Source: Oscillospiraceae bacterium
GTDB taxonomy: Bacteria > Bacillota > Clostridia > Oscillospirales > JAAYXM01
Direction: 5' to 3'
NCBI GenBank assembly: GCA_015067485.1
Contig: SVMJ01000002.1
Span: 15,401-79,400, forward strand
DNA length: 64,000 nucleotides
The notes under the pieces were generated by a model. The model did no database searches. It had not been told where the DNA came from and saw only the letters and a program-made list of their open reading frames with translations. The stretch's first letter is position 1, and each line of letters starts with the position of its first letter. This document shows positions 3,804 to 48,017 of this stretch, piece by piece. Made by a program: the position numbers and the translations under genes.

Positions 3804-4661
3804 TTACAAATTCTTCAGATAATCTCTAAACCAGTCGCCTACTTCGGGATGCTGGAGCGCGATCTGAACCGTTGCGTGCAGGTATCCACGGAGATTTCCC
3901 GTATCATATCGTACCCCTTCATACTCCACGCCAAGCAACTTCTGTGTCTGACAGAGCGCGTTGAGCCCGTCAGTCAGCTGAATTTCGCCGCCGTACCCTG
4001 CCGACAGATGCTCCAGCATATTGTAGATTTCGGGGGTGAGAACATATCGTCCCAAAATCGCGTAGTTGGACATAATCTGATCGAGTCTCGGTTTTTCGAT
4101 GAGTTTATGGACTTCCATCACGCGCTCTTCCACCGGAGTAACATCCAGCGAGCAGTACTTGCTGATTTGGTCGTTGGGGACGTAACTGACCCCAACGGTT
4201 GCGCAACCTGTTTTTTCATATACATCCAAAAGCTGGCGGGTAACAGGGGTCTTGCCCACCATGACATCGTCGCCGAGCAATACCGCAAAGGGTTCCGAAC
4301 CCGTAAATGCCTTCGCGCACAAAATCGCATGACCCAGCCCGTGCTGTTCTTTCTGACGGATGAATGTGATATCCGCCATATCCGCGATGGCACGGAGTGC
4401 GTCTGCCTCTTCTTCACGGCCGGATGCGCGTAGTTTCGCCTCGAGTTCGGGCGAATAGTCAAAATAGTCGCAAAGTTCTTCCTTGCCACGGCTGGTGATG
4501 ATTAAAATTTCGGAAATCCCTGATTTCACCGCTTCTTCCACAATGTAGTGGATGCTCGGGCGGTCGACCAACGGGAGCATTTCTTTCGGAATCGCTTTGG
4601 TCGCGGGCAGCATACGGGTGCCAAACCCCGCGGCAGGGATAACAGCTTTCTTTACTTTCAT
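3804..4661 (-). CDS. galU: UTP--glucose-1-phosphate uridylyltransferase
   Basis: MKVKKAVIPAAGFGTRMLPATKAIPKEMLPLVD... is the canonical GalU N-terminus. ATG at 4661 lies 8 nt after AGGAG, so the GTG at 4670 in the track is too close to the RBS. Confidence 0.9.
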   Translation of the reverse strand: MKVKKAVIPAAGFGTRMLPATKAIPKEMLPLVDRPSIHYIVEEAVKSGISEILIITSRGKEELCDYFDYSPELEAKLRASGREEEADALRAIADMADITFIRQKEQHGLGHAILCAKAFTGSEPFAVLLGDDVMVGKTPVTRQLLDVYEKTGCATVGVSYVPNDQISKYCSLDVTPVEERVMEVHKLIEKPRLDQIMSNYAILGRYVLTPEIYNMLEHLSAGYGGEIQLTDGLNALCQTQKLLGVEYEGVRYDTGNLRGYLHATVQIALQHPEVGDWFRDYLKNL

Positions 4662-5249: not shown

Positions 5250-5311
5250 ATTATTTTGTATCCTTGCCCCTACGACAGTTGGGGCCAAAAGTCCAAAAGG
5301 AGGTGTAGAAA

Positions 5312-5614
5312 ATGGCAAAAATCACTGCTAAGTACGAAACCATTATGATCCTGGATGTCGATCTGGGCGAAACCGCTATCGCGGAACTGGTTGCAAAGTT
5401 CAAAGCATTGATCGAAGCAAACGCAACTCTTACCAACATCGATGAATGGGGTAAGCGCCGTCTCGCTTATGCGATCAATGACAAGCCGGAAGGCTACTAT
5501 GTCTTTGCAGAGTTCGAATGTGCTCCGTCTTTCCCGGCAGAATTGGACCGTAACTACAAGATCACCGAAGGTGTTATGCGTTCCATCATCGTCTGCCAGG
5601 ACGAAGCGAAGTAA
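5312..5614 (+). CDS. rpsF: 30S ribosomal protein S6
   Basis: MAKITAKYETIMILD...WGKRRLAYAINDKPEGYYVFAEFE. Sits in the rpsF-ssb-rpsR order, with GGAGG RBS. Confidence 0.95.
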   Translation: MAKITAKYETIMILDVDLGETAIAELVAKFKALIEANATLTNIDEWGKRRLAYAINDKPEGYYVFAEFECAPSFPAELDRNYKITEGVMRSIIVCQDEAK

Positions 5615-5626
5615 GGAGGGCTTTTC

Positions 5627-6079
5627 ATGTTAAACAAAGCAATCCTGATGGGTCGTCTCACCAAAGACCCCGAACTGCGTCATACCCAGTCCAACATCCC
5701 GGTCGCATCCTTTACCCTTGCGGTAGACCGTGGGTACTCCAAAAACAATGCGGAAGGTCAGCAGACGGTTGACTTCATCAACATCGTCGCATGGCGCGGC
5801 ACCGCAGAGTTCGTATCCAAATGGTTCCGCAAAGGTCAACTGGTGGCGGTTTCTGGGCGGATCCAGGTCCGCAACTGGACAGATCGGGACAACAACAATC
5901 GGACTACTTGCGAAATCGTGGCAGACGAATGCTTCTTCGCAGAGTCCAAGCGTGATTCCGCGCCGAGCGCGGATGCGTTCCCCTATGGCGGCAACTCCGC
6001 ACCGGCAGCAGCGCCCACCATGCCGAACATGGCACAGTTTGAGGAACTGCTCGACGGCGACGAAGACTTGCCGTTCTAA
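5627..6079 (+). CDS. ssb: Single-stranded DNA-binding protein
   Basis: MLNKAILMGRLTKDPELRHT.. OB fold, with the acidic C-terminal tip DGDEDLPF. Confidence 0.95.
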   Translation: MLNKAILMGRLTKDPELRHTQSNIPVASFTLAVDRGYSKNNAEGQQTVDFINIVAWRGTAEFVSKWFRKGQLVAVSGRIQVRNWTDRDNNNRTTCEIVADECFFAESKRDSAPSADAFPYGGNSAPAAAPTMPNMAQFEELLDGDEDLPF

Positions 6080-6109
6080 GCCCCAAATCAATTAAAGGAG
6101 GATTCCGTA

Positions 6110-6337
6110 ATGGATCGTAACAGAAGCCGTAAGCGCAAAAAAGTTTGCTCTTTCTGCGTTGATAAAGCCGGACAGATCGATTACAAAGATACCGCAAAAC
6201 TGCGCCGTTATCTTTCCGATCGTTCCAAAATCCTGCCGCGCAGAATGACCGGTGTTTGTGCAGAGCATCAGCGTCAGTTGACCGTCGCAATCAAGCGTGC
6301 ACGTCATATCGCTCTGCTCCCGTACATTACCGACTAA
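6110..6337 (+). CDS. rpsR: 30S ribosomal protein S18
   Basis: [63 protein letters not shown]. Confidence 0.95.
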
Positions 6338-6350
6338 GTAAAAACCAAAA

Positions 6351-6379
6351 CAGGTGTGAGAAAACTCACACCTGTTTTT
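6351..6379 (+). terminator. Terminator after rpsR (overlaps the spoIID stop codon)
   Basis: Stem CAGGTGTGAG/CTCACACCTG with an AAAA loop, followed by TTTTT. Confidence 0.75.
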
Positions 6380-7349
6380 CTATTTTCACTTTCCCCAAAG
6401 TCGCCCCCTGATAGTAATGCGCCAAAATCCCGCGGTAGTCCATCCCCTTCTTCGCAAGCCCCTGCGCCCCGTACTGGCTCATGCCAACCCCGTGCCCGTA
6501 TCCACGGGTGGCAAAGGTAATGTTGCTTTCATCCACATCCACGGTAAAATGTGTGCTCCGCAACCCGAACATCACGCGCAAATCGCGTCCGCTGATGTTG
6601 ACGCCCCCCACGCAAACCGTCTTGACCCCGCCTGCATCGCTCCGTACAAAATCGGAAAACCATGTTTTGGGCGCGGACGAAAAATCCGCATTTCGGTATG
6701 TCTCTTTCACCTTAGCGATAAACGTTTCTTTCGGCACGGTTACGGTACTCTCAAAATTGGGCGCCGCGTCATCCCCCACCGTCTCAACACTCTGCAGATA
6801 CGGCACGTCGCGCCCCCACACATCCGCCGCCCGCTCGGTCTTCCCGTCGCTCGACGAATGGAACACCGCGCTGATGGGCTGATTCTCATAGAGTAAAATC
6901 TCCCCGTCGGTGTCATGAACCGCCTTTTGAATCTTCTCGGTGTAACTCTCCCCGCTCGTCCCCCAATGCGCGGCAAAAGATGAAATGGGCTGATACGCTT
7001 TGCAGTGGTCGGGGTTTGCACACACCATCGCGCCCTTATGGCTTGCATCCGCTTCTTCCGCCGCGCGCTTCATGGTATACGTCCGCGCCGCGACCGCCTG
7101 GGCTTTCAGCGCTTCTTCGGGGAAGAGTGCGGGCATCTCGGCCGCCACCACGCCTTGGAGATAGGTTTCCAGACTCATTTCCTCCACCACCCCGTCCCGC
7201 AGGACCGTGACCGTGGTGTTGGCATCGATCGCCTCTTCTTCCTGTACCTGCGGAGTGGGCAGAATCGCCCTTTCCCCCCCAAGGCAGACCAGCGGCAAGG
7301 CAAAGGTCGCAAGCCACAATCCCAGACAAAGCAGAAAAAATCGTTTCAT
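6366..7349 (-). CDS. spoIID: Stage II sporulation protein D (SpoIID/LytB-domain lytic transglycosylase)
   Basis: Motifs AQAVAARTY, ISAVFHSSSDGKTE and RGYGHGVGMSQYGAQGLAKKG. ATG at 7349 lies 6 nt after AGAGGTG. Confidence 0.85.
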   Translation of the reverse strand: MKRFFLLCLGLWLATFALPLVCLGGERAILPTPQVQEEEAIDANTTVTVLRDGVVEEMSLETYLQGVVAAEMPALFPEEALKAQAVAARTYTMKRAAEEADASHKGAMVCANPDHCKAYQPISSFAAHWGTSGESYTEKIQKAVHDTDGEILLYENQPISAVFHSSSDGKTERAADVWGRDVPYLQSVETVGDDAAPNFESTVTVPKETFIAKVKETYRNADFSSAPKTWFSDFVRSDAGGVKTVCVGGVNISGRDLRVMFGLRSTHFTVDVDESNITFATRGYGHGVGMSQYGAQGLAKKGMDYRGILAHYYQGATLGKVKIEKQV

Positions 7350-10348: not shown

Positions 10349-11248
10349 ATGAAAGTTCAAAAAATTGATATTCACAACCACGTGGTTTTGCAAAAAGGCA
10401 CTCCGCGTTTCTATTCCGCAAAACGCGGCGACTGGCTGACCCCGGAAGAAACCTTCCGTTTCTTTGATTTGCAGGGTATTGAAAAAGGGGTGCAACTCCC
10501 GTTCATCTCGCCCGAATGGGGCACGCACACGATGACCAACGAAGAATCCATGGAACTGGTGCGCCGCTATCCCGACCGTTTCGAGTGGTTCTGCAACATT
10601 GACCCGCGAAACATCATCAATGACCCGTCTGCCGACTTCACCCCCATGCTCGAATACTACAAATCCATGGGCGCAAAGGGCGTGGGCGAAGTCACTGCCA
10701 ACCTGTATTTTGACGATCCGCTCGTTTGGAACCTGTTCTCCCACTGCGAAAAGTGCGATATGCCCGTGCTCTTCCACGTTGGGAACTTAGGGCTCGACTA
10801 TGGCTTGGTCGATGATCTTGGACTGCCCCGTTTGGAAAAATCCTTACAGCAGTTCCCGAACCTGATTTTCATCGGGCACTCCCAGAAATACTGGGCGGAA
10901 ATCAGCGGTGACTGCAACGCGGAAGTCCGCGACGGCTACCCCACCGGCAAAGTCGTCCCCGGGGGACGTGTGGTGGAACTCATGCGCAAATACAAAAACC
11001 TCCACTCAGACCTTTCGGCCGGCAGCGGCGGAAACGCAATCATGCGTGACCCGGAATTCGGCTACGCATTTTTGGAAGAGTTCTGTGACCGTTTGTACTT
11101 CGGCACCGACATCTGCCACCCCGACCAGATTGAAGACGATTTCAAACTCTCCTTCTTCCTGGACGATGCGGTGGAATCGGGTAAAATCTCACAGACCGCC
11201 TACAACAAAATCTGCCGTGAAAACGCACTCAAATTACTCAATCGATAA
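10349..11248 (+). CDS. Amidohydrolase-family metal-dependent hydrolase
   Basis: MKVQKIDIHNHVV (HxH metal motif), later HVG, GHS and a C-terminal D. AAAGGAG RBS precedes the ATG at 10349. Confidence 0.7.
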   Translation: MKVQKIDIHNHVVLQKGTPRFYSAKRGDWLTPEETFRFFDLQGIEKGVQLPFISPEWGTHTMTNEESMELVRRYPDRFEWFCNIDPRNIINDPSADFTPMLEYYKSMGAKGVGEVTANLYFDDPLVWNLFSHCEKCDMPVLFHVGNLGLDYGLVDDLGLPRLEKSLQQFPNLIFIGHSQKYWAEISGDCNAEVRDGYPTGKVVPGGRVVELMRKYKNLHSDLSAGSGGNAIMRDPEFGYAFLEEFCDRLYFGTDICHPDQIEDDFKLSFFLDDAVESGKISQTAYNKICRENALKLLNR

Positions 11249-11250
11249 AG

Positions 11251-11286
11251 AAAAACTCCGTTGCTTTTGCAACGGAGTTTTTTTCT
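11251..11286. terminator. Bidirectional terminator
   Basis: AAAAACTCCGTTGC-TTTT-GCAACGGAGTTTTT between convergent genes. Confidence 0.75.
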
Positions 11287-12854: not shown

Positions 12855-13949
12855 TTAGTCGATGACCTTGCCGAAGTAGTCTTCGAAGTTGATGCCGACA
12901 GTAGCACCGATCTTCTGCATTTCGCCAATAGTCTTTTCGTTTGCCGGGAGACCGTCTCTCAGTTTTTCCTGAGTAGATTCGAGTTCCTTTTCGCCGTGGG
13001 TGTAGATACGGGTCTGGCCTTCTGCCTTTGCGCTGTTGCGGAGTTCTTCGAGGAGAACCGAGCAGTTCTTACGCATGGTAGCCTTGTCGCCGAACATACC
13101 GTAGTCGATTGCCCAGAATGCTTCGGAGGTGTCGCCGTTACCGCAGTGGGAAACATGGTTGGAGGTTACGCCGCCTGCCATGATCGCGGTCAGGATCTCA
13201 ACGATTGCGCCAAGACCGTAACCCTTGTGGGAACCGGTTGCTTCGGAGGAACCGCCGATCGGCAGAATGCCGCCGCCTGCTTTGTTGATGATGTTCTGGA
13301 TGACTTCGCCTGCGTTGGTGGTGTCGAGGCCGTTCGCGTCAACGACCCAGCCCATCGGCAGCGGAGCGCCCTTCTTGTTGTAGACTTCCAGCTTACCACG
13401 CGGAACAACGGTGGTAGCAACGTCGTAAAGGAACGGAGTCGGATCAGCCGGCATGCCGAATGCGATCGGATTGGTACCCAGCATTGCGTTCTTGCCGTTG
13501 GTCGGGATCGCGATTGCTTCGGTGTTGGTGAAGCAGAAGCCCATCATATCCTGTTCGACTGCCATTCTGGTATAGTAACCTGCGATACCGTAGTGGTTGG
13601 AGTGGTTGACAACGACAGCACCAAAGCCGTGTTCTTTTGCTTTGTCGATCGCCATCTGCATTGCCATTTTGGAAACAACCTGACCCATTGCCATCTTTGC
13701 ATCGATGACAGCGGAGAGTTTGGTTTCATGGGTAATGACCGGCTCTGCCTTCGGGCAGATGAGCCCTTCCTGGATACCGTCATGATAACGGATCAGGCGC
13801 TGAATGCCGTGGGACTCGATGCCGTACAGGTCAGCCATGAGCAGAACGTCTGCAATATCGATCGCCTGCTGACGGGTGAAGCCGTAACCCTCATACAAAT
13901 CTTCAACGAATTTTCTGGTTGCTTTTTCCGGTAATTTATAATATGCCAT
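12855..13949 (-). CDS. Ldh_2 family oxidoreductase (malate/L-lactate/sulfolactate dehydrogenase type)
   Basis: LLMADLYGIESHGIQRLIRY...HSNHYGIAGYY...GSHKGYGLG are typical Ldh_2 family motifs. Confidence 0.8.
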   Translation of the reverse strand: MAYYKLPEKATRKFVEDLYEGYGFTRQQAIDIADVLLMADLYGIESHGIQRLIRYHDGIQEGLICPKAEPVITHETKLSAVIDAKMAMGQVVSKMAMQMAIDKAKEHGFGAVVVNHSNHYGIAGYYTRMAVEQDMMGFCFTNTEAIAIPTNGKNAMLGTNPIAFGMPADPTPFLYDVATTVVPRGKLEVYNKKGAPLPMGWVVDANGLDTTNAGEVIQNIINKAGGGILPIGGSSEATGSHKGYGLGAIVEILTAIMAGGVTSNHVSHCGNGDTSEAFWAIDYGMFGDKATMRKNCSVLLEELRNSAKAEGQTRIYTHGEKELESTQEKLRDGLPANEKTIGEMQKIGATVGINFEDYFGKVID

Positions 13950-22252: not shown

Positions 22253-22327
22253 GCCGCTTTAGTTAAATGGATATAACAGCCCCCTCCTAAGGGGCAGTTG
22301 AGGGTTCGATTCCCCCAAGCGGTGCCA
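22253..22327 (+). tRNA. tRNA-Arg (anticodon CCT)
   Basis: Hand-folded cloverleaf: acceptor GCCGCTT/AAGCGGT, D stem GTTA/TAAC, anticodon stem GCCCC/GGGGC with loop CTCCTAA (U33, CCT, A37). T arm is GAGGG-TTCGATT-CCCCC with one A:C mismatch. The CCA is encoded. Confidence 0.8.
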
Positions 22328-22330
22328 GAA

Positions 22331-22360
22331 AAAACCTCGTTCTTCAAAACGAGGTTTTTT
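22331..22360 (+). terminator. Terminator after tRNA-Arg
   Basis: CCTCGT/ACGAGG stem preceded by an A-run and followed by T6. Confidence 0.65.
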
Positions 22361-22361
22361 C

Positions 22362-22679: not shown

Positions 22680-23156
22680 ATGCAAACGGTCTATCAAAAA
22701 GCATATGCGCATCTTGCAAATGTCACCCCCATCCCCGCGGACTGCGGGATACTCTGCTCCTCCCGCTGCTGCAAGGGCGACAACAACCAAGGCATGATTT
22801 TGTTCCCGGGTGAAGCCGAATTTTTGGGCATCTCCGCACAAAAGCGTACCATGGGCGACACCGAAGTAGACTTCTTTGTGTGTGACGGCACGTGCAACCG
22901 CGCCCGCCGTCCGCTCTCCTGCCGCATCTTCCCGTTTGCACCCTATCTCAAAGATGGAGAACTCTCTGTCATTCCCGATCCGCGTGCACGCTTTTTGTGT
23001 CCGCTCCTGGAGGAAGAAGCGCTCCCGTTTGTGCAAAAAGAATTTATCACCGCGATCAAAACCGCGTTTACACTTCTTTGCGAAGATGCATCGATCCGTG
23101 GAATGCTCATCCAATATTCCGCAATGCTCGATGAATACAAACGGTTTACAAAATAA
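22680..23156 (+). CDS. Cysteine-cluster protein (YkgJ/UPF0153-like, putative Zn/Fe-chelating)
   Basis: 158-aa ORF with a GGAGGTGG RBS. Contains DCGILCSSRCCKG (C-x3-C-x3-CC) plus later CDGTC and C..FPF motifs. Family assignment is from memory of the CxxCxxCC domain only. Confidence 0.5.
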   Translation: MQTVYQKAYAHLANVTPIPADCGILCSSRCCKGDNNQGMILFPGEAEFLGISAQKRTMGDTEVDFFVCDGTCNRARRPLSCRIFPFAPYLKDGELSVIPDPRARFLCPLLEEEALPFVQKEFITAIKTAFTLLCEDASIRGMLIQYSAMLDEYKRFTK

Positions 23157-23171
23157 TTTTTAAAAAAACTG

Positions 23172-23200
23172 TTGACAAGTCAAAAATACAAGCGTATAAT
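23172..23200 (+). promoter_or_regulatory. Consensus sigma-A promoter of the T-box operon
   Basis: TTGACA (23172-23177), 17-nt spacer, TATAAT (23195-23200). Confidence 0.7.
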
Positions 23201-23206
23201 ACATTA

Positions 23207-23480
23207 CAAATTTGAATATCACAAAAAGACTGCGACGAAGACGGTCGGTTCGTGATGCTTTTAGAGAGTTGCCGGATGGTGCAAGGCAATAGCGGAGCGT
23301 TCCAATGGCTTATCACTTCTGAGTCGAAGGACCGAAAGCGAAAGTGAGTAGACTCCTTCCGTATTGCTGCGTAAAGGCAAAGGGCTTGTCAGAGCCCGGT
23401 GAGTGACGGATTTTCCGTAACTTGAGTGGTACCGCGGGTTGTAAGGCTCGTCTCAAGAAGATCTTGAGACGGGTTTTTTT
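23207..23480 (+). promoter_or_regulatory. T-box riboswitch leader (tRNA-sensing transcription attenuator)
   Basis: AG-bulge AGAGAG (23263-23268) is followed directly by hairpin TTGCC-GGATGGTGCAA-GGCAA carrying the distal-loop GGTGCAA motif. T-box core GAGTGGTACCGCGG lies at 23424-23437. Terminator CGTCTCAAG/CTTGAGACG plus T7 lies at 23447-23480. The terminator 5' arm CTCAAG can instead pair with CTTGAG of the T-box, forming the antiterminator. Confidence 0.85.
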
Positions 23481-23534
23481 GTTTTATTCAAATTCGTAAC
23501 TCATACTTGCGAAAATGAAAGGAGACAATCGAAA

Positions 23535-25829
23535 ATGGACTACAATCTGAAAGATGTTGCTGAGCGCATCAAGAATCTGCGTGAAGCGAAGGGCTTCAGC
23601 CCGGAAGAACTTGCAAAACTCACTGATATTTCCACCGAAGACTACTTGGTACTGGAGCAGGGTGAAACCGATTTCAGTTTCACTTTCATCTACAAATGTG
23701 CAAGAGCGTGCGGTGTCGACGTGGTCGACCTGCTCGAAGGCACCAGTTCTACCCTGTCGTCTTTCACCGTTACCCGCAAAGGGCAGGGTGCAAAGATCCT
23801 CAAAAAGCACGGGGTGGTCTACGATAACCTCGCCCCCAAGTTCAAAGGCAAACTCGCAGAGCCGTTCCTTGTCACCTTCCCCTATTTGGAAGAAGAGCAG
23901 AACGCGCCCATGAAATTAAACTCCCACAAGGGTCAGGAGTTTGACGTCATCGTCAAAGGCTCGCTCAAAGTCCAGGTGGGAAACCATGTGGAAGTCTTAA
24001 ATGAAGGCGACTCCATTTTCTATAACAGTACGCTTCCGCACGGCATGATCGCGGTAAGCGAAGGCGGCTGCGAATTCTACGCGGTGGTCTTAAACCCGAA
24101 AGACGGCTCGATCGAAGAAGATCCCGAAACCCCGTTCATCGTCTCCAAGTCTGCGGAAAAAGTCGTAATGAGAACCGTTGCGGATGATTTTGTGGAGTCT
24201 TCTTACGATGAAAACGGCGTTTTCTCCGGCATTTCTTTCAAAAACGATGACAAATTCAACTTCGCATTTGACTGTGTGGACGCAATCGCGGAAAAAGACC
24301 CCGACAAACTCGCAATGATGTGGGTGGCAAACGACAAGTCCGACCGCAAGTTCACCTTCTCGGACATGAAGAAATACTCGGCAAAGACCGCAAACTACTT
24401 TGAATCCCTCGGCATCAAAAAGGGCGACACGGTTATGCTGGTCTTAAAGCGTCACTACCAATTCTGGTTCTGTATGCTCGCATTGCATAAGATCGGCGCA
24501 ATCGCGATCCCCGCAACCAATCAGCTCGTCGAACATGACTTCACCTACCGTTACAAAGCGGCAAAAGTTAAGGCAATCGTCTGTACTGCAGACGGATCTG
24601 TCTCGGACGAAGCAGAAAAAGCAGCAGCAGAATTCCCGGGTATGGTCAAAGTTTTGGTCGGCGGCAAGAAAGACGGTTGGAACGACTTTAACGTGGAAAT
24701 GGAGCGTTTCAGCACCAACTATCCGCGCAAAGCAGACTCTCCCTGCGGCAATGACCCCATGCTCATGCTCTTTACATCCGGCACTACGGGCTATCCGCGC
24801 ATCGCGACCCATTCGTATAAATACGCGCTCGGTCATTATCCCACTGCAAAGCATTGGCACAACGTAAACCCGAACGGGCTGCACTTCACCATTTCGGATA
24901 CCGGCTGGGGCAAGGCGCTCTGGGGCAAACTTTACGGACAGTGGCTGTGCGAAGCGGCAGTCTTCACCTATGACTTTGACCGTTTCCACTCGGATGACAT
25001 CCTGCCCATGTTTGCAAAATACAACATCACCACATTCTGTGCACCGCCCACCATGTACCGCTTCTTCATCAAGGAAGACCTGTCCAAGTATGACTTGTCC
25101 TCCATCGAATATGCGACCACCGCGGGTGAAGCGCTCAACCCGGAAGTCTTCAATCAGTTCAAGAAAGCCACCGGACTCACCATCATGGAAGGCTTCGGGC
25201 AGACCGAAACCACCCTTTCTATCGCAAACTTTGTGGGCTCTACATCCAAAGTCGGTTCCATGGGCAAGCCCAGCCCGCTCTATGACGTTGCGATCTTAGA
25301 CCCGGATGGAAACGAATGCAAGACCGGTGATACCGGTGAGATCTGCATCCGCACCAAAGACGGCGCACCCTGCGGTCTGTTCATCGGCTATTATCTGGAC
25401 GAAGAAAAGACCAATGAAGTCTGGCACGACGGCTACTATCATACCGGTGACCAGGCAACCATGGACGAAGACGGATACCTTTGGTATGTCGGTCGTATCG
25501 ACGACGTCATCAAATCCTCGGGTTACCGCATCGGTCCGTTTGAGATCGAAAGCGTCATCATGGAACTCCCCTACGTACTCGAATGTGCGATCACCCCTGT
25601 CCCCGACGAAGTCCGCGGACAGATCGTCAAAGCCACCATCGTACTCACCAAGAACACGGTCGGCACCGACGACCTCAAAAAGGAAATTCAGGAATATGTC
25701 AAAACCCACACCGCGCCGTACAAGTACCCGCGCATCGTGGAATTTGTTGACGAACTCCCGAAAACCATCAGCGGCAAGATCCGCCGCGTCGAGATCCGCA
25801 AGAAAGACACCGAAAATCTGGGTAAATAG
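23535..25829 (+). CDS. Fusion protein: XRE-type HTH + cupin domain + AMP-forming acyl-CoA synthetase (ANL superfamily)
   Basis: N-terminal HTH (LKDVAERIKNLREAKGFSPEELAKLTDISTEDYLVLEQG). Cupin (HKGQEFDVIVKGSLKVQVGNHVEVLNEGDSIFYNSTLPHGM). ANL motifs LMLFTSGTTGYPR, YGQTE-like GFGQTET, YHTGD, SSGYRIGPFEIE and PKTISGKIRR. AAAGGAGA RBS. Confidence 0.8.
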   Translation: MDYNLKDVAERIKNLREAKGFSPEELAKLTDISTEDYLVLEQGETDFSFTFIYKCARACGVDVVDLLEGTSSTLSSFTVTRKGQGAKILKKHGVVYDNLAPKFKGKLAEPFLVTFPYLEEEQNAPMKLNSHKGQEFDVIVKGSLKVQVGNHVEVLNEGDSIFYNSTLPHGMIAVSEGGCEFYAVVLNPKDGSIEEDPETPFIVSKSAEKVVMRTVADDFVESSYDENGVFSGISFKNDDKFNFAFDCVDAIAEKDPDKLAMMWVANDKSDRKFTFSDMKKYSAKTANYFESLGIKKGDTVMLVLKRHYQFWFCMLALHKIGAIAIPATNQLVEHDFTYRYKAAKVKAIVCTADGSVSDEAEKAAAEFPGMVKVLVGGKKDGWNDFNVEMERFSTNYPRKADSPCGNDPMLMLFTSGTTGYPRIATHSYKYALGHYPTAKHWHNVNPNGLHFTISDTGWGKALWGKLYGQWLCEAAVFTYDFDRFHSDDILPMFAKYNITTFCAPPTMYRFFIKEDLSKYDLSSIEYATTAGEALNPEVFNQFKKATGLTIMEGFGQTETTLSIANFVGSTSKVGSMGKPSPLYDVAILDPDGNECKTGDTGEICIRTKDGAPCGLFIGYYLDEEKTNEVWHDGYYHTGDQATMDEDGYLWYVGRIDDVIKSSGYRIGPFEIESVIMELPYVLECAITPVPDEVRGQIVKATIVLTKNTVGTDDLKKEIQEYVKTHTAPYKYPRIVEFVDELPKTISGKIRRVEIRKKDTENLGK

Positions 25830-25836
25830 GGTATTG

Positions 25837-25868
25837 TTAAGCCGCAAGGAAAATTCCTTGCGGCTTAA
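25837..25868 (+). other. Intercistronic 13-15 bp stem-loop between the two T-box operon genes
   Basis: TTAAGCCGCAAGG..CCTTGCGGCTTAA is a perfect inverted repeat. It is not followed by a U-tract. Confidence 0.5.
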
Positions 25869-25888
25869 TTAAAAGAGAGGTGATTTCT

Positions 25889-27328
25889 GTGAAAAAAACA
25901 TATGTAACGTCTATGCCCAATCATATCGGGGCATTTTTGAAAGCAAGCACGTGTTTTTCTCGGCTGGGCATCAATATTACACGCGTAAGTTATAACAAAG
26001 CAGTTGATTCACACACGTTGTTTATTGATGCCGAAGGATGTGACGAGCAACTGAAAAAAGCAGATGAAGAACTCGAAAAAATCGGCTATCTGCCGACCGG
26101 GGTCAGCAAAACGAGCATTGTTTTAATCGAGTTTTGTCTCCCGGATGTTCCGGGGAGCGTAACCAACGTCCTGGAACTCATCAATCAATTTAACTTCAAC
26201 ATATCCTACATCAGTTCGCAGGAAAACGGAACCGATTACCAGTATTTCAAAATGGGGTTATACGTTGAAGCGTACGATAAAATAGCAGAGTTCTTAAAGG
26301 AAGCAGAAAAACTTTGCAAAGTTCGCGTGATAGATTACAACAGTTCGGAAAAAGTGTATGATAACAGTATTTTTTATAATACCTACGTTTTGGGTCTGTC
26401 CAAAGTTGTGGGGCTTTCCGAAGACATGAGCCGTGAACTTTTGGTGCAAGTAAACCTTGCAATGCAAACGTTGGATGAACAAGGGCTGTCTCCATACCGT
26501 ACATTTGACAGTATCAGTAAATTCGCAGAACTTTTGGGTGCTTCTCAAGGCAAAAATTTCAGTCCCCGCACGAGTGTACATAAGATAACCGACCAAACCG
26601 AAATAACGCTCATAGAACCGCCTTGCGGAAGCAACACACTCATCATCAACAGTTGCGGCAAAGTTCTGTTTGTCGATAGCGGATATGCCTGCTATCGATC
26701 GGAGATGCTTGAAATTTTCAAAAAACTCATGCCCGATTTTGACCATATGGAAAAAACCGTTCTCATTACGCACGCAGATGTGGATCATTGCGGACTGCTG
26801 CCGCTTTTCGATACTGTGATCGCAAGCAAAAAAACGGCACGCTGTCTTGAAAATGAGTATCTGGGAAAAAACGGATATCGAGAAGAAAATCCACTCCACA
26901 AGCCGTATATCAACATTTGCAAGATTCTCACATCATATGAGGCGGTGAACCCGAACAAACTCAAGCCTATGTGGAACGATACCGAGACACCGACCGAGCC
27001 GCTGACGCAAATCGGATTTTTTGATTTCGGAGAACTGCATTTTGAAGTTTATGAAGGGAAAGGCGGTCATCTCCCGGGCGAGATCGTTCTGATCGATTAT
27101 GCAAAGCATCTTGCGATCACGGGCGATATTTACATCAATACCCATGGTCTCACCGCAAAACAAGCGGAATACAATCAGTATGCCCCGATCCTGATGACCT
27201 CGGTCGACACAGACCCAAAACTGTGTTCCGAAGAGCGAACTGCAATTCTTGAGCGCCTTGGTGTAGGGAATTGGCAGATCTTTGGTGCACATGGATTCAA
27301 AAAGGACTACTCGGTCAAATTCCAATAA
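25889..27328 (+). CDS. Tandem ACT-domain + metallo-beta-lactamase-fold protein
   Basis: Two ACT-like modules (MPNHIGAFLKASTCFSRLGINITRVSY.. and LPDVPGSVTNVLELINQFNFNISYISS..). These are followed by an MBL fold with ITHADVDHCG (HxHxDH) and later H/D ligands. GTG at 25889 lies 8 nt after AGAGAGG. Confidence 0.7.
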   Translation: MKKTYVTSMPNHIGAFLKASTCFSRLGINITRVSYNKAVDSHTLFIDAEGCDEQLKKADEELEKIGYLPTGVSKTSIVLIEFCLPDVPGSVTNVLELINQFNFNISYISSQENGTDYQYFKMGLYVEAYDKIAEFLKEAEKLCKVRVIDYNSSEKVYDNSIFYNTYVLGLSKVVGLSEDMSRELLVQVNLAMQTLDEQGLSPYRTFDSISKFAELLGASQGKNFSPRTSVHKITDQTEITLIEPPCGSNTLIINSCGKVLFVDSGYACYRSEMLEIFKKLMPDFDHMEKTVLITHADVDHCGLLPLFDTVIASKKTARCLENEYLGKNGYREENPLHKPYINICKILTSYEAVNPNKLKPMWNDTETPTEPLTQIGFFDFGELHFEVYEGKGGHLPGEIVLIDYAKHLAITGDIYINTHGLTAKQAEYNQYAPILMTSVDTDPKLCSEERTAILERLGVGNWQIFGAHGFKKDYSVKFQ

Positions 27329-42767: not shown

Positions 42768-44063
42768 CTACATTTCCAAAATGTTTTTACGGATGTCTTT
42801 GATCTCGTTTCGCAGTTCTTCGTTTACGCGAATTTCGTCTTCAATTTTATTGACCGAATGCATGACGGTAGAGTGGTCTCGGTTAAAATACCGCCCGATT
42901 TCAGGGAAGGAAGATTGGATGAGTTCGCGGATGAGATACATCGAGATCTGACGCGGGAGTGCCACTTCTTTGGATTTGTTCTTTCCTACAATCGTGGGTT
43001 CTTCCACCTGAAAGTATTTTGCCACTTCGCGTACAATAATCTCAGGCGTGGGATTGAGCCCCGGATGTTCGTGGAACATATCTTTGATGGCACGCTCCAC
43101 AATGTCCTGGCTGATGTCATTGCCCAAGAGATTGCTGTACGCGTGGATTTTTTTGATGGTACCTTCGATCTGACGGACGTTGGAAGTTACGTTATTTGCG
43201 ATGATTTCGCGTTGTGCTTCGGAGAGATCCAGCCCTAAACGCTTACATTTGAGCGAAATGATTGCCATACGGGTTTCGTAGTTTGGAGGCTGAATGTCCG
43301 CCATCAGACCCCATTCAAAACGGGTTCTGAGTCGCTCTTCCAAATTCACCATTTCCTTGGGCAGGCGGTCGGATGTCAGAACAATCTGTTTTTTGCTTTC
43401 ATAGAGCGCATTGAACGTATGGAAAAATTCTTCCTGCGTTTGCGCTTTGCCCGCAATAAATTGAATATCGTCGATCAGAAGCAAATCCGCCTCGCGGTAT
43501 TTTTCACGGAATTCATCGCCTTTGTTGGCTTGGATGCTCTCGATGAATTCGCTGGTGAAGTCGCCGCCCTTGACATAGTTAATTTTCGCGTTCGGGTTGT
43601 TCTTTTTCACCGTGATTGCAATCGCATTGAGCAGATGGGTCTTCCCCAACCCGCTGCCGCCGTAAATAAAGAGCGGATTGTACGATGCTCCCGGTGCCTG
43701 TGCGACCGCTTTTGCCGCGGCGTAGGCAAGGTCGTTTGATTTACCCACGATGAACCGTTCAAACGAGAGTTCTTCCGAGAACTGGGAAATCTCTTGCTGG
43801 ACTTCCGAATTTTCCTGTGCGGTGATGACAAGGTCGATATCGGATGAAAACAAGAGTTTGAGCGCTTCTTTGATGCGCCCGGTATACTGTTGCTCCACCG
43901 TAGACCGCTTAAACGGGATTTCGATGAAAAGTGTCAGTGAGTTATCCGAAAAAGAAAGCGCTTTTGTATCGTCAAACCAGGTATTGATGGTTGTTTTGGA
44001 AAGACCGAGTTCACGCTCCATAATTTCAAGCGTTTTTGCCCAGATCTCCTGTGCATATTGCAT
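42768..44063 (-). CDS. dnaA: Chromosomal replication initiator DnaA
   Basis: [15 protein letters not shown]...[17 protein letters not shown] (Walker A)...LLIDDIQF...RTRFEWGL...C-terminal DNA-binding HTH (DHSTVMHS). ATG at 44063 lies 7 nt after GGGGGA. Confidence 0.95.
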
Positions 44064-44103
44064 TCGTATATCCCCCAAAAATTCGTTACTGATACGTAAA
44101 TCC

Positions 44104-44132
44104 ATTATAGCAGATTTCGAATCAAAATTCAA
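44104..44132 (-). promoter_or_regulatory. Candidate dnaA promoter
   Basis: On the minus strand: TTGAAT, 17-nt spacer, TATAAT, about 40 nt upstream of the dnaA ATG. Confidence 0.45.
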
Positions 44133-44196
44133 CATCTTACATTATAAAAAAGAAAATAAAAAATTCCTTTGTTTTTGAAAAAATATACAAAGATAC

Positions 44197-46742: not shown

Positions 46743-48017
46743 TTATCGGATGACTTCCAAGCCCTTCATGTACGGGCGAAGTACGGTCGGGACGGTAATG
46801 CTTCCGTCTTCGTTCTGGTAGTTTTCCAAAATCGCGGCAACGGTACGGCCGATCGCGACACCTGAACCGTTTAAGGTGTGAACGAACTGGGTCTTCCCTG
46901 TTTCCGGATTCTTGTAGCGGATGTTTGCACGTCTTGCCTGGAAGTCTTCAAAGTTCGAGCAGGAAGAGATTTCAAGATAACGGTCGTAAGACGGCATCCA
47001 AACTTCAATGTCATAAGTCATTGCAGACGAGAAGCCAAGATCGCCCGCGCAGAGCTGAACCACACGGTACGGGAGTTCGAGTGCCTGAAGCACCGCTTCC
47101 GCATCATTGGTCAAACTTTCGAGTTCCCCATAGGAATCTTCCGGTTTTGCAAACTTGACCAATTCAACCTTGTTGAACTGATGCTGACGGATGAGTCCGC
47201 GTGTATCGCGTCCCGCACTTCCCGCTTCCGCACGGAAGCAAGCCGAGTATGCACAGTACTTGATGGTTTCGGAGAAGTTATCCAAAATGGAATCACGCAG
47301 CATATTGGTAACCGGGACTTCTGCGGTCGGGATCAGGAAATAATCCTCACGTCCGAGATGGAATGCATCTTCCTCAAACTTGGGCAGCTGACCGGTTCCG
47401 GTCATGGATGCGCGGTTGACCATAAACGGCGGGAATACTTCGGTATACCCCTTTTCCATGTGCGAATCCAAGTAGAAGTTGATGACCGCGCGCTCCAGGC
47501 GTGCGCCCGCTGCTTTGTAGAAATGGAAACGTGCGCCGGTAACCTTTGCGGCGGTTTCCGGGTCGAGAATATCCAGATTCTTGCCCAGGTCCCAATGAGC
47601 AAGCGGAGTGAAATCAAAGGTACGCGGAGTCCCCACCTTGCGGATCTCCTTGTTCTGATCGCTGTCCAACCCGTCCGGAATGGAGTCGTTCGGGCAGTTC
47701 GGCAGGCAAAGAATGGTCTGACTTAGTTCGGTTTCTACTTCACGCAGAGCCGGATCAAGTTCCTTGATCGCGTCTGCCAACTCTTTCATCTTTGCAAAGA
47801 TGGGAGAGGTGTCCTCCCCTGCCTTCTTCATTGCGGGAATTTGCTTGGAGACCGCGTTCTGTTCAGCTTTCATCGCTTCGGATTTCTGCAAAATCTCACG
47901 GCGACGGGAATCAAGTTCCAAAATACGGTCGATTTCTGCCGAATAATCTTTGTTACGGCGTGCAAGCGCCGCTTTCACCTTTTCAGGATTTTCTTTGATG
48001 ATTTTCAGGTCCAACAT
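46743..48017 (-). CDS. serS: Seryl-tRNA synthetase
   Basis: [21 protein letters not shown].. N-terminal coiled coil. Class II motifs [24 protein letters not shown] and [12 protein letters not shown]. Confidence 0.95.

Follow-up and report, generated by a model that had tools for sequence, protein, structure and literature searches.

Why would a riboswitch that reads transfer RNA (tRNA) control an enzyme that activates carboxylic acids? This question is raised by a locus of an Oscillospiraceae bacterium (GTDB JAAYXM01), located at 23172-27328 of the 64,000-nt stretch of DNA that we analysed (GCA_015067485.1, contig SVMJ01000002.1, positions 15,401-79,400, forward strand; hereafter the window, whose positions serve as coordinates). 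Here, a T-box leader precedes a gene for an adenosine monophosphate (AMP)-forming acyl-coenzyme A (acyl-CoA) synthetase, fused to a helix-turn-helix (HTH) and a cupin domain, and a gene for a protein with two ACT domains and a metallo-beta-lactamase (MBL) domain. The promoter, the leader with all its elements, both genes and the hairpin between them are on the + strand. T-boxes usually gate genes for aminoacyl-tRNA synthetases, amino-acid biosynthesis or transporters. An earlier reading made from the bare sequence (the sequence-only reading) placed the target outside these classes, and rightly so, as the gated gene encodes an acyl-CoA ligase. Judged from alignment and covariation, the leader is a genuine T-box with an isoleucine (Ile) specifier, which probably turns on the activation of 2-methylbutyrate for Ile synthesis.

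The leader and its conservation

The Rfam T-box model RF00230 aligned over its full length to the leader with 79.3 bits (E = 1e-17 for the leader alone and E = 1.6e-15 for the whole window). This is significant by E-value, although the score is lower than the curated gathering cut-off of 93 bits. A default Rfam scan of the window at the gathering threshold matched a tRNA-Arg only. The T-box required permissive filters, under which it was the sole T-box-like match to RF00230 in the window. The modest scores are explained by the loss of the 4 nt that make up the AGUA S-turn in the specifier loop of the model, and by an extra hairpin at 23382-23397. Hence, the leader falls below 93 bits and was missed by routine annotation. 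Orthologous leaders scored 81-101 bits, and five out of ten exceeded the threshold, at 94.7-101.4 bits.

The combination of leader and ligase gene is widespread among relatives. A scan with one genome per species gave 567 relatives of the gene, from which we retained 80 loci; 78 of these have sequence upstream of the ligase gene. The T-box core precedes the ligase gene in 77 of these 78 loci, and in all 78 if the leader of L075, which has one core mismatch, is included. Hundreds of homologues of the ligase gene (~85–88% identity) occur in Ruminococcaceae, Acutalibacteraceae and metagenome-assembled genomes of Clostridia, mainly from the guts of ruminants and other animals. Clustering at 50% reduced the entire clade to one representative, with two distant full-length fusions besides.

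The pairing pattern supports the same conclusion. In an alignment of 50 leaders (A2), RNAalifold recovered Stem I, Stem II, Stem III and the terminator, with 28 of 69 pairs kept via double-sided changes. A T-box structure specified by hand, antiterminator included, had standard pairs in 98.8% of cells, compared to 34–54% in controls in which helix partners were slid along the alignment. Double-sided changes were seen at 23 pairs, against 4–8 in the slid controls, and none of 500 shuffles attained the observed values. According to these sequence comparisons, the leader at 23223-23458 is a genuine transcription-attenuating T-box, as the sequence-only reading had claimed.

Transcription appears to start from a sigma-70 promoter at 23172-23200 (−35 TTGACA at 23172-23177, a 17-nt spacer, −10 TATAAT at 23195-23200) that matches the consensus at 12 of 12 positions. 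Its −35 TTGAC and −10 TAtAAT are kept across a promoter alignment of 75 loci, and this alignment revealed no conserved palindromic operator at the promoter. A palindrome across the −35 of the window, TTGACAAGTCAA, was considered as an HTH operator and rejected, since it is not conserved at other loci.

The leader corresponds to positions 1-219 of RF00230. Stem I (23234-23325), delimited by covariance model alignment and covariation, contains a GA (K-turn) motif, a lower stem of GAAG (23237-23240) and CUUC (23316-23319), the AG bulge AGAGAG (23263-23268) and the distal loop GGUGCAA (23278-23284). Both of the latter motifs are invariant or nearly so, and the Stem I helices are 89–100% paired with compensatory changes: one pair of the lower stem is AU in 37 and GC in 13 of the 50 leaders, while a pair of the distal stem shows four pair types. 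Stem II (23326-23359) has an apical pair that varies between CG (24), GC (19), AU (3) and UA (3). In the Stem IIA/B pseudoknot region (23360-23381), the IIB pairing UUGC/GCAA is preserved as ACGC/GCGU in L018 and as ACAC/GUGU in L074. Next comes the extra hairpin GGGCUU-GUCA-GAGCCC (23382-23397), an insertion with respect to the Rfam model; four of its six pairs show double-sided changes, and it is paired in 100% of cells. Stem III (23406-23418) includes one pair that is AU in 33 and GC in 17 leaders, and another that is GC in 35, AU in 8 and CG in 2.

The T-box core GAGTGGTACCGCGG lies at 23424-23437 and contains the T-box sequence GAGUGGUACCGCGG. The antiterminator (23421-23457) has the 7-nt bulge UGGUACC (23427-23433), of which UGGU (23427-23430) is present in 76 of 76 aligned leaders. 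Its helices are 100% and 98.8% paired, with a single compensatory pair (UA in 46, UG in 3 and CG in 1 of the 50 leaders) and a change from G.U to A.C in three leaders. The intrinsic terminator (23443-23486) consists of a 16-pair hairpin (23443-23477) and a U-run, and compensatory changes are found at its pairs 257-267/281-291 of alignment A2. The 5' arm of the terminator (23447-23457) doubles as the 3' arm of the antiterminator, and the two structures are mutually exclusive. Promoter, AGAGAG, GGTGCAA, T-box core and this alternative pairing of the terminator had each been recognized in the sequence-only reading, and each lies at the position it gave. A minimum-free-energy pairing of the 5' leader with a variable part of Stem I was rejected, as this region is not conserved.

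Compared to canonical T-boxes (RF00230; e.g., the Ile T-boxes upstream of ileS in Firmicutes), the leader shares a Stem I with GA motif, specifier loop, AG bulge and distal loop, as well as Stem II, Stem IIA/B, Stem III, the 7-nt UGGNACC bulge, the competing antiterminator and intrinsic terminator, and an NNC specifier. However, it gates an acyl-CoA ligase instead of a synthetase, a biosynthetic gene or a transporter. It also has a reduced specifier loop without the AGUA S-turn and a covarying hairpin before Stem III, it is bracketed by a conserved inverted repeat, and the scores of its family straddle the Rfam threshold. The riboswitch class is thus already known; what is new is the kind of gene it controls, together with the shortened specifier loop, the additional hairpin and the fusion to a regulator. 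These four features are undescribed in the searchable literature, including Wels 2008 and TBDB. Likewise, this literature yielded nothing that links T-boxes to acyl-CoA ligases, although an earlier listing in Vitreschak et al. (2008) or RegPrecise is possible. A more general consequence is that genuine T-boxes occur just under the Rfam threshold, where they escape routine annotation.

The specifier and the sensed tRNA

In the covariance model alignment, the specifier falls on AUC (23312-23314), which sits on top of the lower stem GAAG/CUUC and has A as its next base (23315). In the set of 76 aligned leaders (the window and 75 orthologous loci), ATC is invariant, while the two preceding nucleotides vary (TT, CC or CT) and the following one is A in 66 leaders and C, G or T in the others. 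The stem beneath the codon covaries (GAAG/CTTC in 47 leaders, GAGG/CCTC in 19). The placement also agrees with the rule of TBDB, which counts from the 3' end of the bulge and assigns the codon to positions 2-4, with a preference for a 3' C. From this placement and conservation, the specifier is AUC, encoding Ile. The sequence-only reading had left the codon unassigned, but AUC-A was among the candidates that it listed.

The specifier loop itself is unusual. It is reduced to 2 nt on its 5' side and 5 nt on its 3' side (N-NNN-R), with the codon and the adjoining purine (AUC-A) present. The S-turn is missing: the alignment to the covariance model has its 4-nt deletion at AGUA, and the GAA is absent as well. 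In contrast, the leucine (Leu) and phenylalanine (Phe) leaders of the same genomes retain AGUA...GAA.

Alternatively, the codon might be read one base later, as UCA, in which case the leader would sense tRNA-Ser. The codon by itself leaves this frame possible, since the base after AUC can be A, C, G or T and all four shifted readings (UCA, UCC, UCG and UCU) encode serine (Ser). Yet the model alignment and the TBDB rule both give AUC. Moreover, all operon families described below share NUC, and the first base of this triplet is fixed within each family but differs between them: A for the ligases of the present type, G for a valine (Val) paralogue, U for PaaK-like ligases and C for LeuA-like operons. 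The antiterminator bulge points in the same direction. UGGU implies the discriminator A73 in the tRNA. Bacterial tRNA-Ile has A73, while bacterial tRNA-Ser carries G73. We therefore rejected the UCN reading on account of the first-base invariance and the bulge, and regard sensing of tRNA-Ser as extremely unlikely.

With an Ile specifier, the established T-box mechanism would operate as follows. A transcript started at the strong sigma-70 promoter would run into the terminating leader, where the AUC displayed by Stem I would be read by the anticodon of tRNA-Ile(GAU). If this tRNA is uncharged, its free 3' ACCA would pair with UGGU, which would stabilize the antiterminator (23421-23457) and allow the polymerase to read through. 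If tRNA-Ile is charged, the terminator (23443-23486) would form instead.

The ligase and the acid it may activate

The first gene behind the leader (23535-25829; Shine-Dalgarno sequence AGGAG at 23520-23524) encodes 764 aa with an XRE-type HTH at aa 9-65 (Pfam HTH_3/HTH_31), a cupin at aa 128-184 (Cupin_2) and the AMP-forming acyl-CoA synthetase at aa 250-748 (AMP-binding), in line with the open reading frame and domains described in the sequence-only reading. The structure closest to the ligase domain is that of MacsMa from Methanosarcina acetivorans (PDB 3ETC), with 681 bits and 56% identity over 528 columns, followed by the next structure at 387 bits. All catalytic motifs and CoA-site residues are intact.

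MacsMa prefers 2-methylbutyrate, carries out both half-reactions with this acid, and has a pocket set by Trp259 and by a Gly in place of Trp416 of Acs (PMC10455477). The ligase retains Trp259 (as KALW(463)GK), the pocket Gly (in GFGQTET) and R490, K519, Y525 and Y527 of MacsMa; the offset of 23 between the two numberings was checked on five residues. Unlike MacsMa, the window protein is bacterial, has an N-terminal HTH-cupin extension of ~235 aa, is under T-box control, and has a substrate that is predicted. The best-scoring NCBIfam model, the 2-methylbutyrate/isobutyrate ligase MbcS, points the same way. On this likeness, 2-methylbutyrate, which has the carbon skeleton of Ile, is the most likely substrate of this MacsMa-like ligase.

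Another acid, such as propionate or acetate, would reduce the similarity to MacsMa to family resemblance. MacsMa also adenylates acids from propionate to octanoate (C3-C8; PMC10455477), and by analogy the substrate of the window ligase could differ as well. Propionate could still justify the Ile specifier, via 2-oxobutyrate and the ilv pathway, and the acetate–CoA ligase model PRK04319 of NCBIfam scored 360 bits on the ligase. The pocket residues speak against this: the Trp that restricts Acs to acetate is replaced by Gly, while the MacsMa-specific Trp259 is conserved. In addition, no Acs structure comes within 400 bits of the 3ETC score. Furthermore, a Val T-box on a paralogue (see below) is explained by a choice between isobutyrate and 2-methylbutyrate, but not by propionate or acetate. 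We consider another acid quite unlikely.

Other T-box-gated ligases in the relatives provide a second line of evidence for 2-methylbutyrate. The genome of a distant fusion that is 55% identical, P0251, carries two tandem HTH-cupin-ligase paralogues (L092, on the same contig as L086). An Ile (AUC) T-box at 3832-4102 precedes the first, and a Val (GUC) T-box at 6648-6903 precedes the second; the reduced specifier loop is common to the two leaders. Among the positions on which all Ile-linked ligases agree, 30 are different in the Val-linked copy; examples are G459A, located four residues ahead of the pocket Trp, and a change from TET to SES in GFGQTET. Phe T-boxes (GAA-UUC-A/C, bulge UGGU) are located upstream of a PaaK-like ligase and a 143-aa protein with a pair of ACT domains in seven of eight loci (L009, at 11029-11279; also L006, L013, L019, L042, L069, L078 and L079 (- strand, near 13765)). 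Such tracking of the specifier by the ligase paralogues (Ile and Val with MacS-like enzymes, Phe with PaaK) is expected if the ligase activates the acid that matches the skeleton of the sensed amino acid.

The pair of PaaK-like ligase and small ACT gene known from anaerobes resembles our locus in that it also combines an acid-CoA ligase with an ACT protein, and in this clade it also has a T-box. There too, the codon (UUC, for Phe) and the acid agree in carbon skeleton, and the pair is a further example of an acid-CoA ligase gated by a T-box. The two systems differ in that the window ligase is MacS-like, while the PaaK partner is a stand-alone ACT pair of 143 aa without MBL fusion.

Leu T-boxes (GAA-CUC-A, 121–136 bits) precede a LeuA-like gene and a ligase fusion in 15 of 17 loci (e.g., L009 at 1437-1684, L040 at 1452-1685, L012 at 1455-1697, L022 at 581-825, and 11 more). 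This operon encodes a LeuA-like protein of 462 aa and a fusion of 826 aa between a xylose-isomerase-type TIM domain and an AMP-ligase, and it is located directly upstream of the ligase with the Ile T-box. The fused ligase might activate isovalerate. The Leu-type leader of L012 has CCC at the specifier position in place of CUC. In the genome with the tandem paralogues, these genes are divergent from a pair of LeuA-like and TIM-ligase genes without a detectable T-box.

Taken together, the predicted chemistry suggests how the T-box could serve Ile synthesis. Read-through would yield the MacsMa-like ligase, which would turn 2-methylbutyrate taken up from outside into 2-methylbutyryl-CoA. Reductive carboxylation of this ester to 2-oxo-3-methylvalerate could then be the task of a 2-oxoacid:ferredoxin oxidoreductase from another part of the genome, and an aminotransferase would complete the route to Ile. 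In this way, low charging of tRNA-Ile would switch on the salvage of the Ile skeleton from an acid that fermentation supplies in abundance in the gut and rumen. Rumen organisms indeed make Ile from 2-methylbutyrate by reductive carboxylation (PMC2812497; PMC10658910). One of the Ile T-box operons, L091, fits this route; it contains the fusion ligase, a ligase-like paralogue (P0274, 3001-5277) and a class I/II aminotransferase (5305-6486). P0274 is 41% identical and has LQSYSYGMAK instead of FTSGTTGYPR as P-loop; with this degenerate motif, it may be a pseudo-enzyme.

The activation of a branched-chain or aryl acid that feeds reductive carboxylation had been proposed in the sequence-only reading. 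The activation part has gained from the proximity to MacsMa, the paralogues with Ile and Val T-boxes, the aminotransferase in L091 and the PaaK-like ligases with Phe T-boxes, all of which support a match between ligase and specifier. The substrate and the carboxylation step are still predictions, and an oxidoreductase was found neither in the window nor as a recurrent neighbour of the ligase.

Several observations weigh against our interpretation. Neither a 2-oxoacid:ferredoxin oxidoreductase nor an ilv gene is present in the 64-kb window, and neither is recurrent beside the ligase in the 80 loci. No tRNA-Ile gene, from which anticodon and discriminator could be read, was found in the window or in 60 loci. 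The best NCBIfam model for the ligase is MbcS (NF047394), with 453 bits, which is lower than its equivalog cut-off of 850 bits. To these points can be added the leader score below the Rfam threshold, the missing S-turn, the shifted frame that the codon alone permits, and the broad acid range of MacsMa. On balance, we still think it probable that the Ile T-box turns on the activation of 2-methylbutyrate for Ile synthesis.

The similarity to MbcS also suggests a different use of the same riboswitch and chemistry, in which 2-methylbutyryl-CoA would prime anteiso branched-chain fatty acids when Ile is scarce. MbcS of Staphylococcus aureus has the same predicted chemistry, from a short branched acid to its CoA ester, and it allows branched-chain fatty acids to be made from 2-methylbutyrate and isobutyrate that are supplied from outside (PMC10026030, PMC11167679). 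The T-box logic would be compatible with this use, as Ile scarcity also depletes the Ile-derived primer. However, MbcS feeds membrane fatty acid synthesis without an HTH-cupin fusion, and the window ligase falls short of the MbcS cut-off. To our knowledge, no T-box has been reported for MbcS. A lipid primer also sits poorly with the aminotransferase in the Ile T-box operon of L091, with an ACT protein, which binds amino acids, in the same regulon, and with the Phe T-box on the PaaK-like ligase of the same genomes, which has no lipid-primer rationale. Priming of lipids is therefore unlikely as the explanation, although the two uses are not mutually exclusive.

If Ile synthesis is the purpose, it would matter for the ecology of these bacteria. 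It is long established that anaerobes of the rumen and gut require or use branched-chain volatile fatty acids to make branched-chain amino acids, and the genes for the acid activation step in Firmicutes are poorly assigned. The ligase with the Ile T-box and its Val, Phe and Leu counterparts are concrete and testable candidates for this step. The T-box specifier could be used to annotate the substrates of generic 'AMP-binding' enzymes, and the T-box regulon would come to include salvage by reductive carboxylation, in addition to synthetases, de novo biosynthesis and transport. More tentatively, there may be a hitherto unrecognized 'acid-salvage' T-box regulon in gut bacteria of the Oscillospirales, in which the specifier names the substrate of the ligase (Ile for 2-methylbutyrate, Val for isobutyrate, Phe for phenylacetate and Leu possibly for isovalerate), with the fusion protein as a combined enzyme and transcription factor and the inverted repeat as a new accessory T-box element. 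Such a regulon would open the long-known dependence of rumen bacteria on branched-chain volatile fatty acids to genetic study. We offer this wider scheme as a possibility, with more doubt than confidence.

The inverted repeat, the second gene and the surroundings

The leader is bracketed by an inverted repeat, which we call P0. Its 5' half is the block AATTTGAATATCAC at 23209-23222, the extreme 5' end of the transcript, and its 3' half is GTTTTATTCAAATT at 23481-23494, the reverse complement, just past the terminator. The 5' half is present in 71 of 81 leaders and identical in 64. The core TATTCRRR of the 3' half is found in 75 of 81, where its only changes are from A to G opposite U. The 8-bp core is paired in 34 of 34 leaders, and the full helix is paired in 95% of cells compared to 29–49% in slid controls. 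The variation is one-sided and preserves wobble pairs, with no double-sided compensation among the 34 leaders, and for that reason we do not claim P0 as a proven helix. One possibility is an RNA helix, which only transcripts that pass the terminator could form; another is a pair of DNA sites bound by the HTH domain. The pattern of variation suits RNA pairing better than a DNA site. The repeat is absent from the distant leaders of L092.

Possibly, the fusion protein is mainly a transcription factor, with the ligase domain as sensor or as producer of an acyl-AMP co-effector. This would be analogous to BirA, which also combines an adenylate-forming enzyme with a DNA-binding domain and suggests a coupling of catalysis to transcription. 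It is an analogy only, since the folds are unrelated and DNA binding by the HTH-cupin module of the window protein is a prediction. The module is complete: the HTH-cupin regulator 1Y9Q aligns to the N-terminal 200 aa over practically all of its length (residues 7-189 of 192). It is highly conserved and in-frame, and stand-alone homologues of ~185 aa are common. Also in favour of a role as regulator are the paralogue with the degenerate P-loop, P0274, and the 14-nt invariant block where transcription starts, which has an inverted copy ~275 bp downstream. Conversely, the intact catalytic motifs and CoA-site residues, the promoter without conserved palindromic operator, and the variation in the repeat, which suits RNA pairing better, all count against it. 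A primarily regulatory protein thus seems very unlikely. More speculatively, the module probably adds a second, ligand-dependent control, directed at its own expression or at partner genes. If so, tRNA charging, riboswitch and enzyme-regulator may form a cascade.

The second gene encodes 479 aa (25889-27328; Pfam ACT twice and Lactamase_B). Its open reading frame opens at 25880, which the sequence-only reading had taken as the start. The most likely start is GTG at 25889, because a Shine-Dalgarno sequence is located at 25876-25884 and homologues begin with MKKTYV; the domains of both reading frames were as described. The layout is ACT-ACT-helical linker-MBL, with the secondary structure taken from an AlphaFold (AF2) model that is poor overall (mean predicted local distance difference test score, pLDDT, of 53.9). 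The metal motif of the MBL domain reads H-A-D-V-D-H instead of the usual HxHxDH and is invariant in 24 homologues. The protein has no NCBIfam family and no close relative in the PDB. Although this is speculative, it is probably a hydrolase that senses amino acids.

The two genes are not a conserved unit. The neighbourhood of the ligase is highly variable across the 80 loci, where T-box and ligase alone are constant. The ACT-MBL gene adjoins the ligase in only ~12 of the 80 genomes: it is found 3' of the ligase in ~10 of the 80 loci, and also in L085, while in L008, L041 and L075 it immediately precedes the leader of the ligase. In one lineage (L081-L084), it stands alone right behind the same Ile leader. 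Its variable adjacency and its own Ile leader in that lineage make it an accessory member of the same Ile regulon. Hence, of the two-gene operon proposed in the sequence-only reading, the T-box and ligase are conserved, but the pairing of ligase and ACT-MBL is not.

A GC-rich 10-bp hairpin, AGCCGCAAGG-AAAATT-CCTTGCGGCT, occupies the gap between the two genes (25840-25865). It has no U-tract, is followed by TAATTAAAAG, and was not flagged by the terminator scan. It may be the remnant of a ligase terminator, or an element that stabilizes or processes the messenger RNA.

Elsewhere in the loci, a tyrosine (Tyr) T-box with GAA-UAC-A precedes a sodium:solute symporter (SSF) in L036 (- strand, near 4320); the T-box core is absent at the other five members of this transporter cluster in the loci.

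The surroundings of the locus in the window include the chromosomal origin (oriC) region at 35659-56639, with gyrA, gyrB, recF, dnaN, dnaA (42768-44135, - strand), serS (46743-48017, - strand), parB, mnmG and a P-type ATPase. In Firmicutes, serS is often a T-box target; the window scan gave no T-box match (E ≤ 0.001) upstream of it. Just upstream of the T-box promoter is an open reading frame of 158 aa (22680-23156) without a family match, which is preceded by the tRNA-Arg(CCU) gene (22253-22327) and a terminator-like hairpin of 14 pairs (22328-22361).

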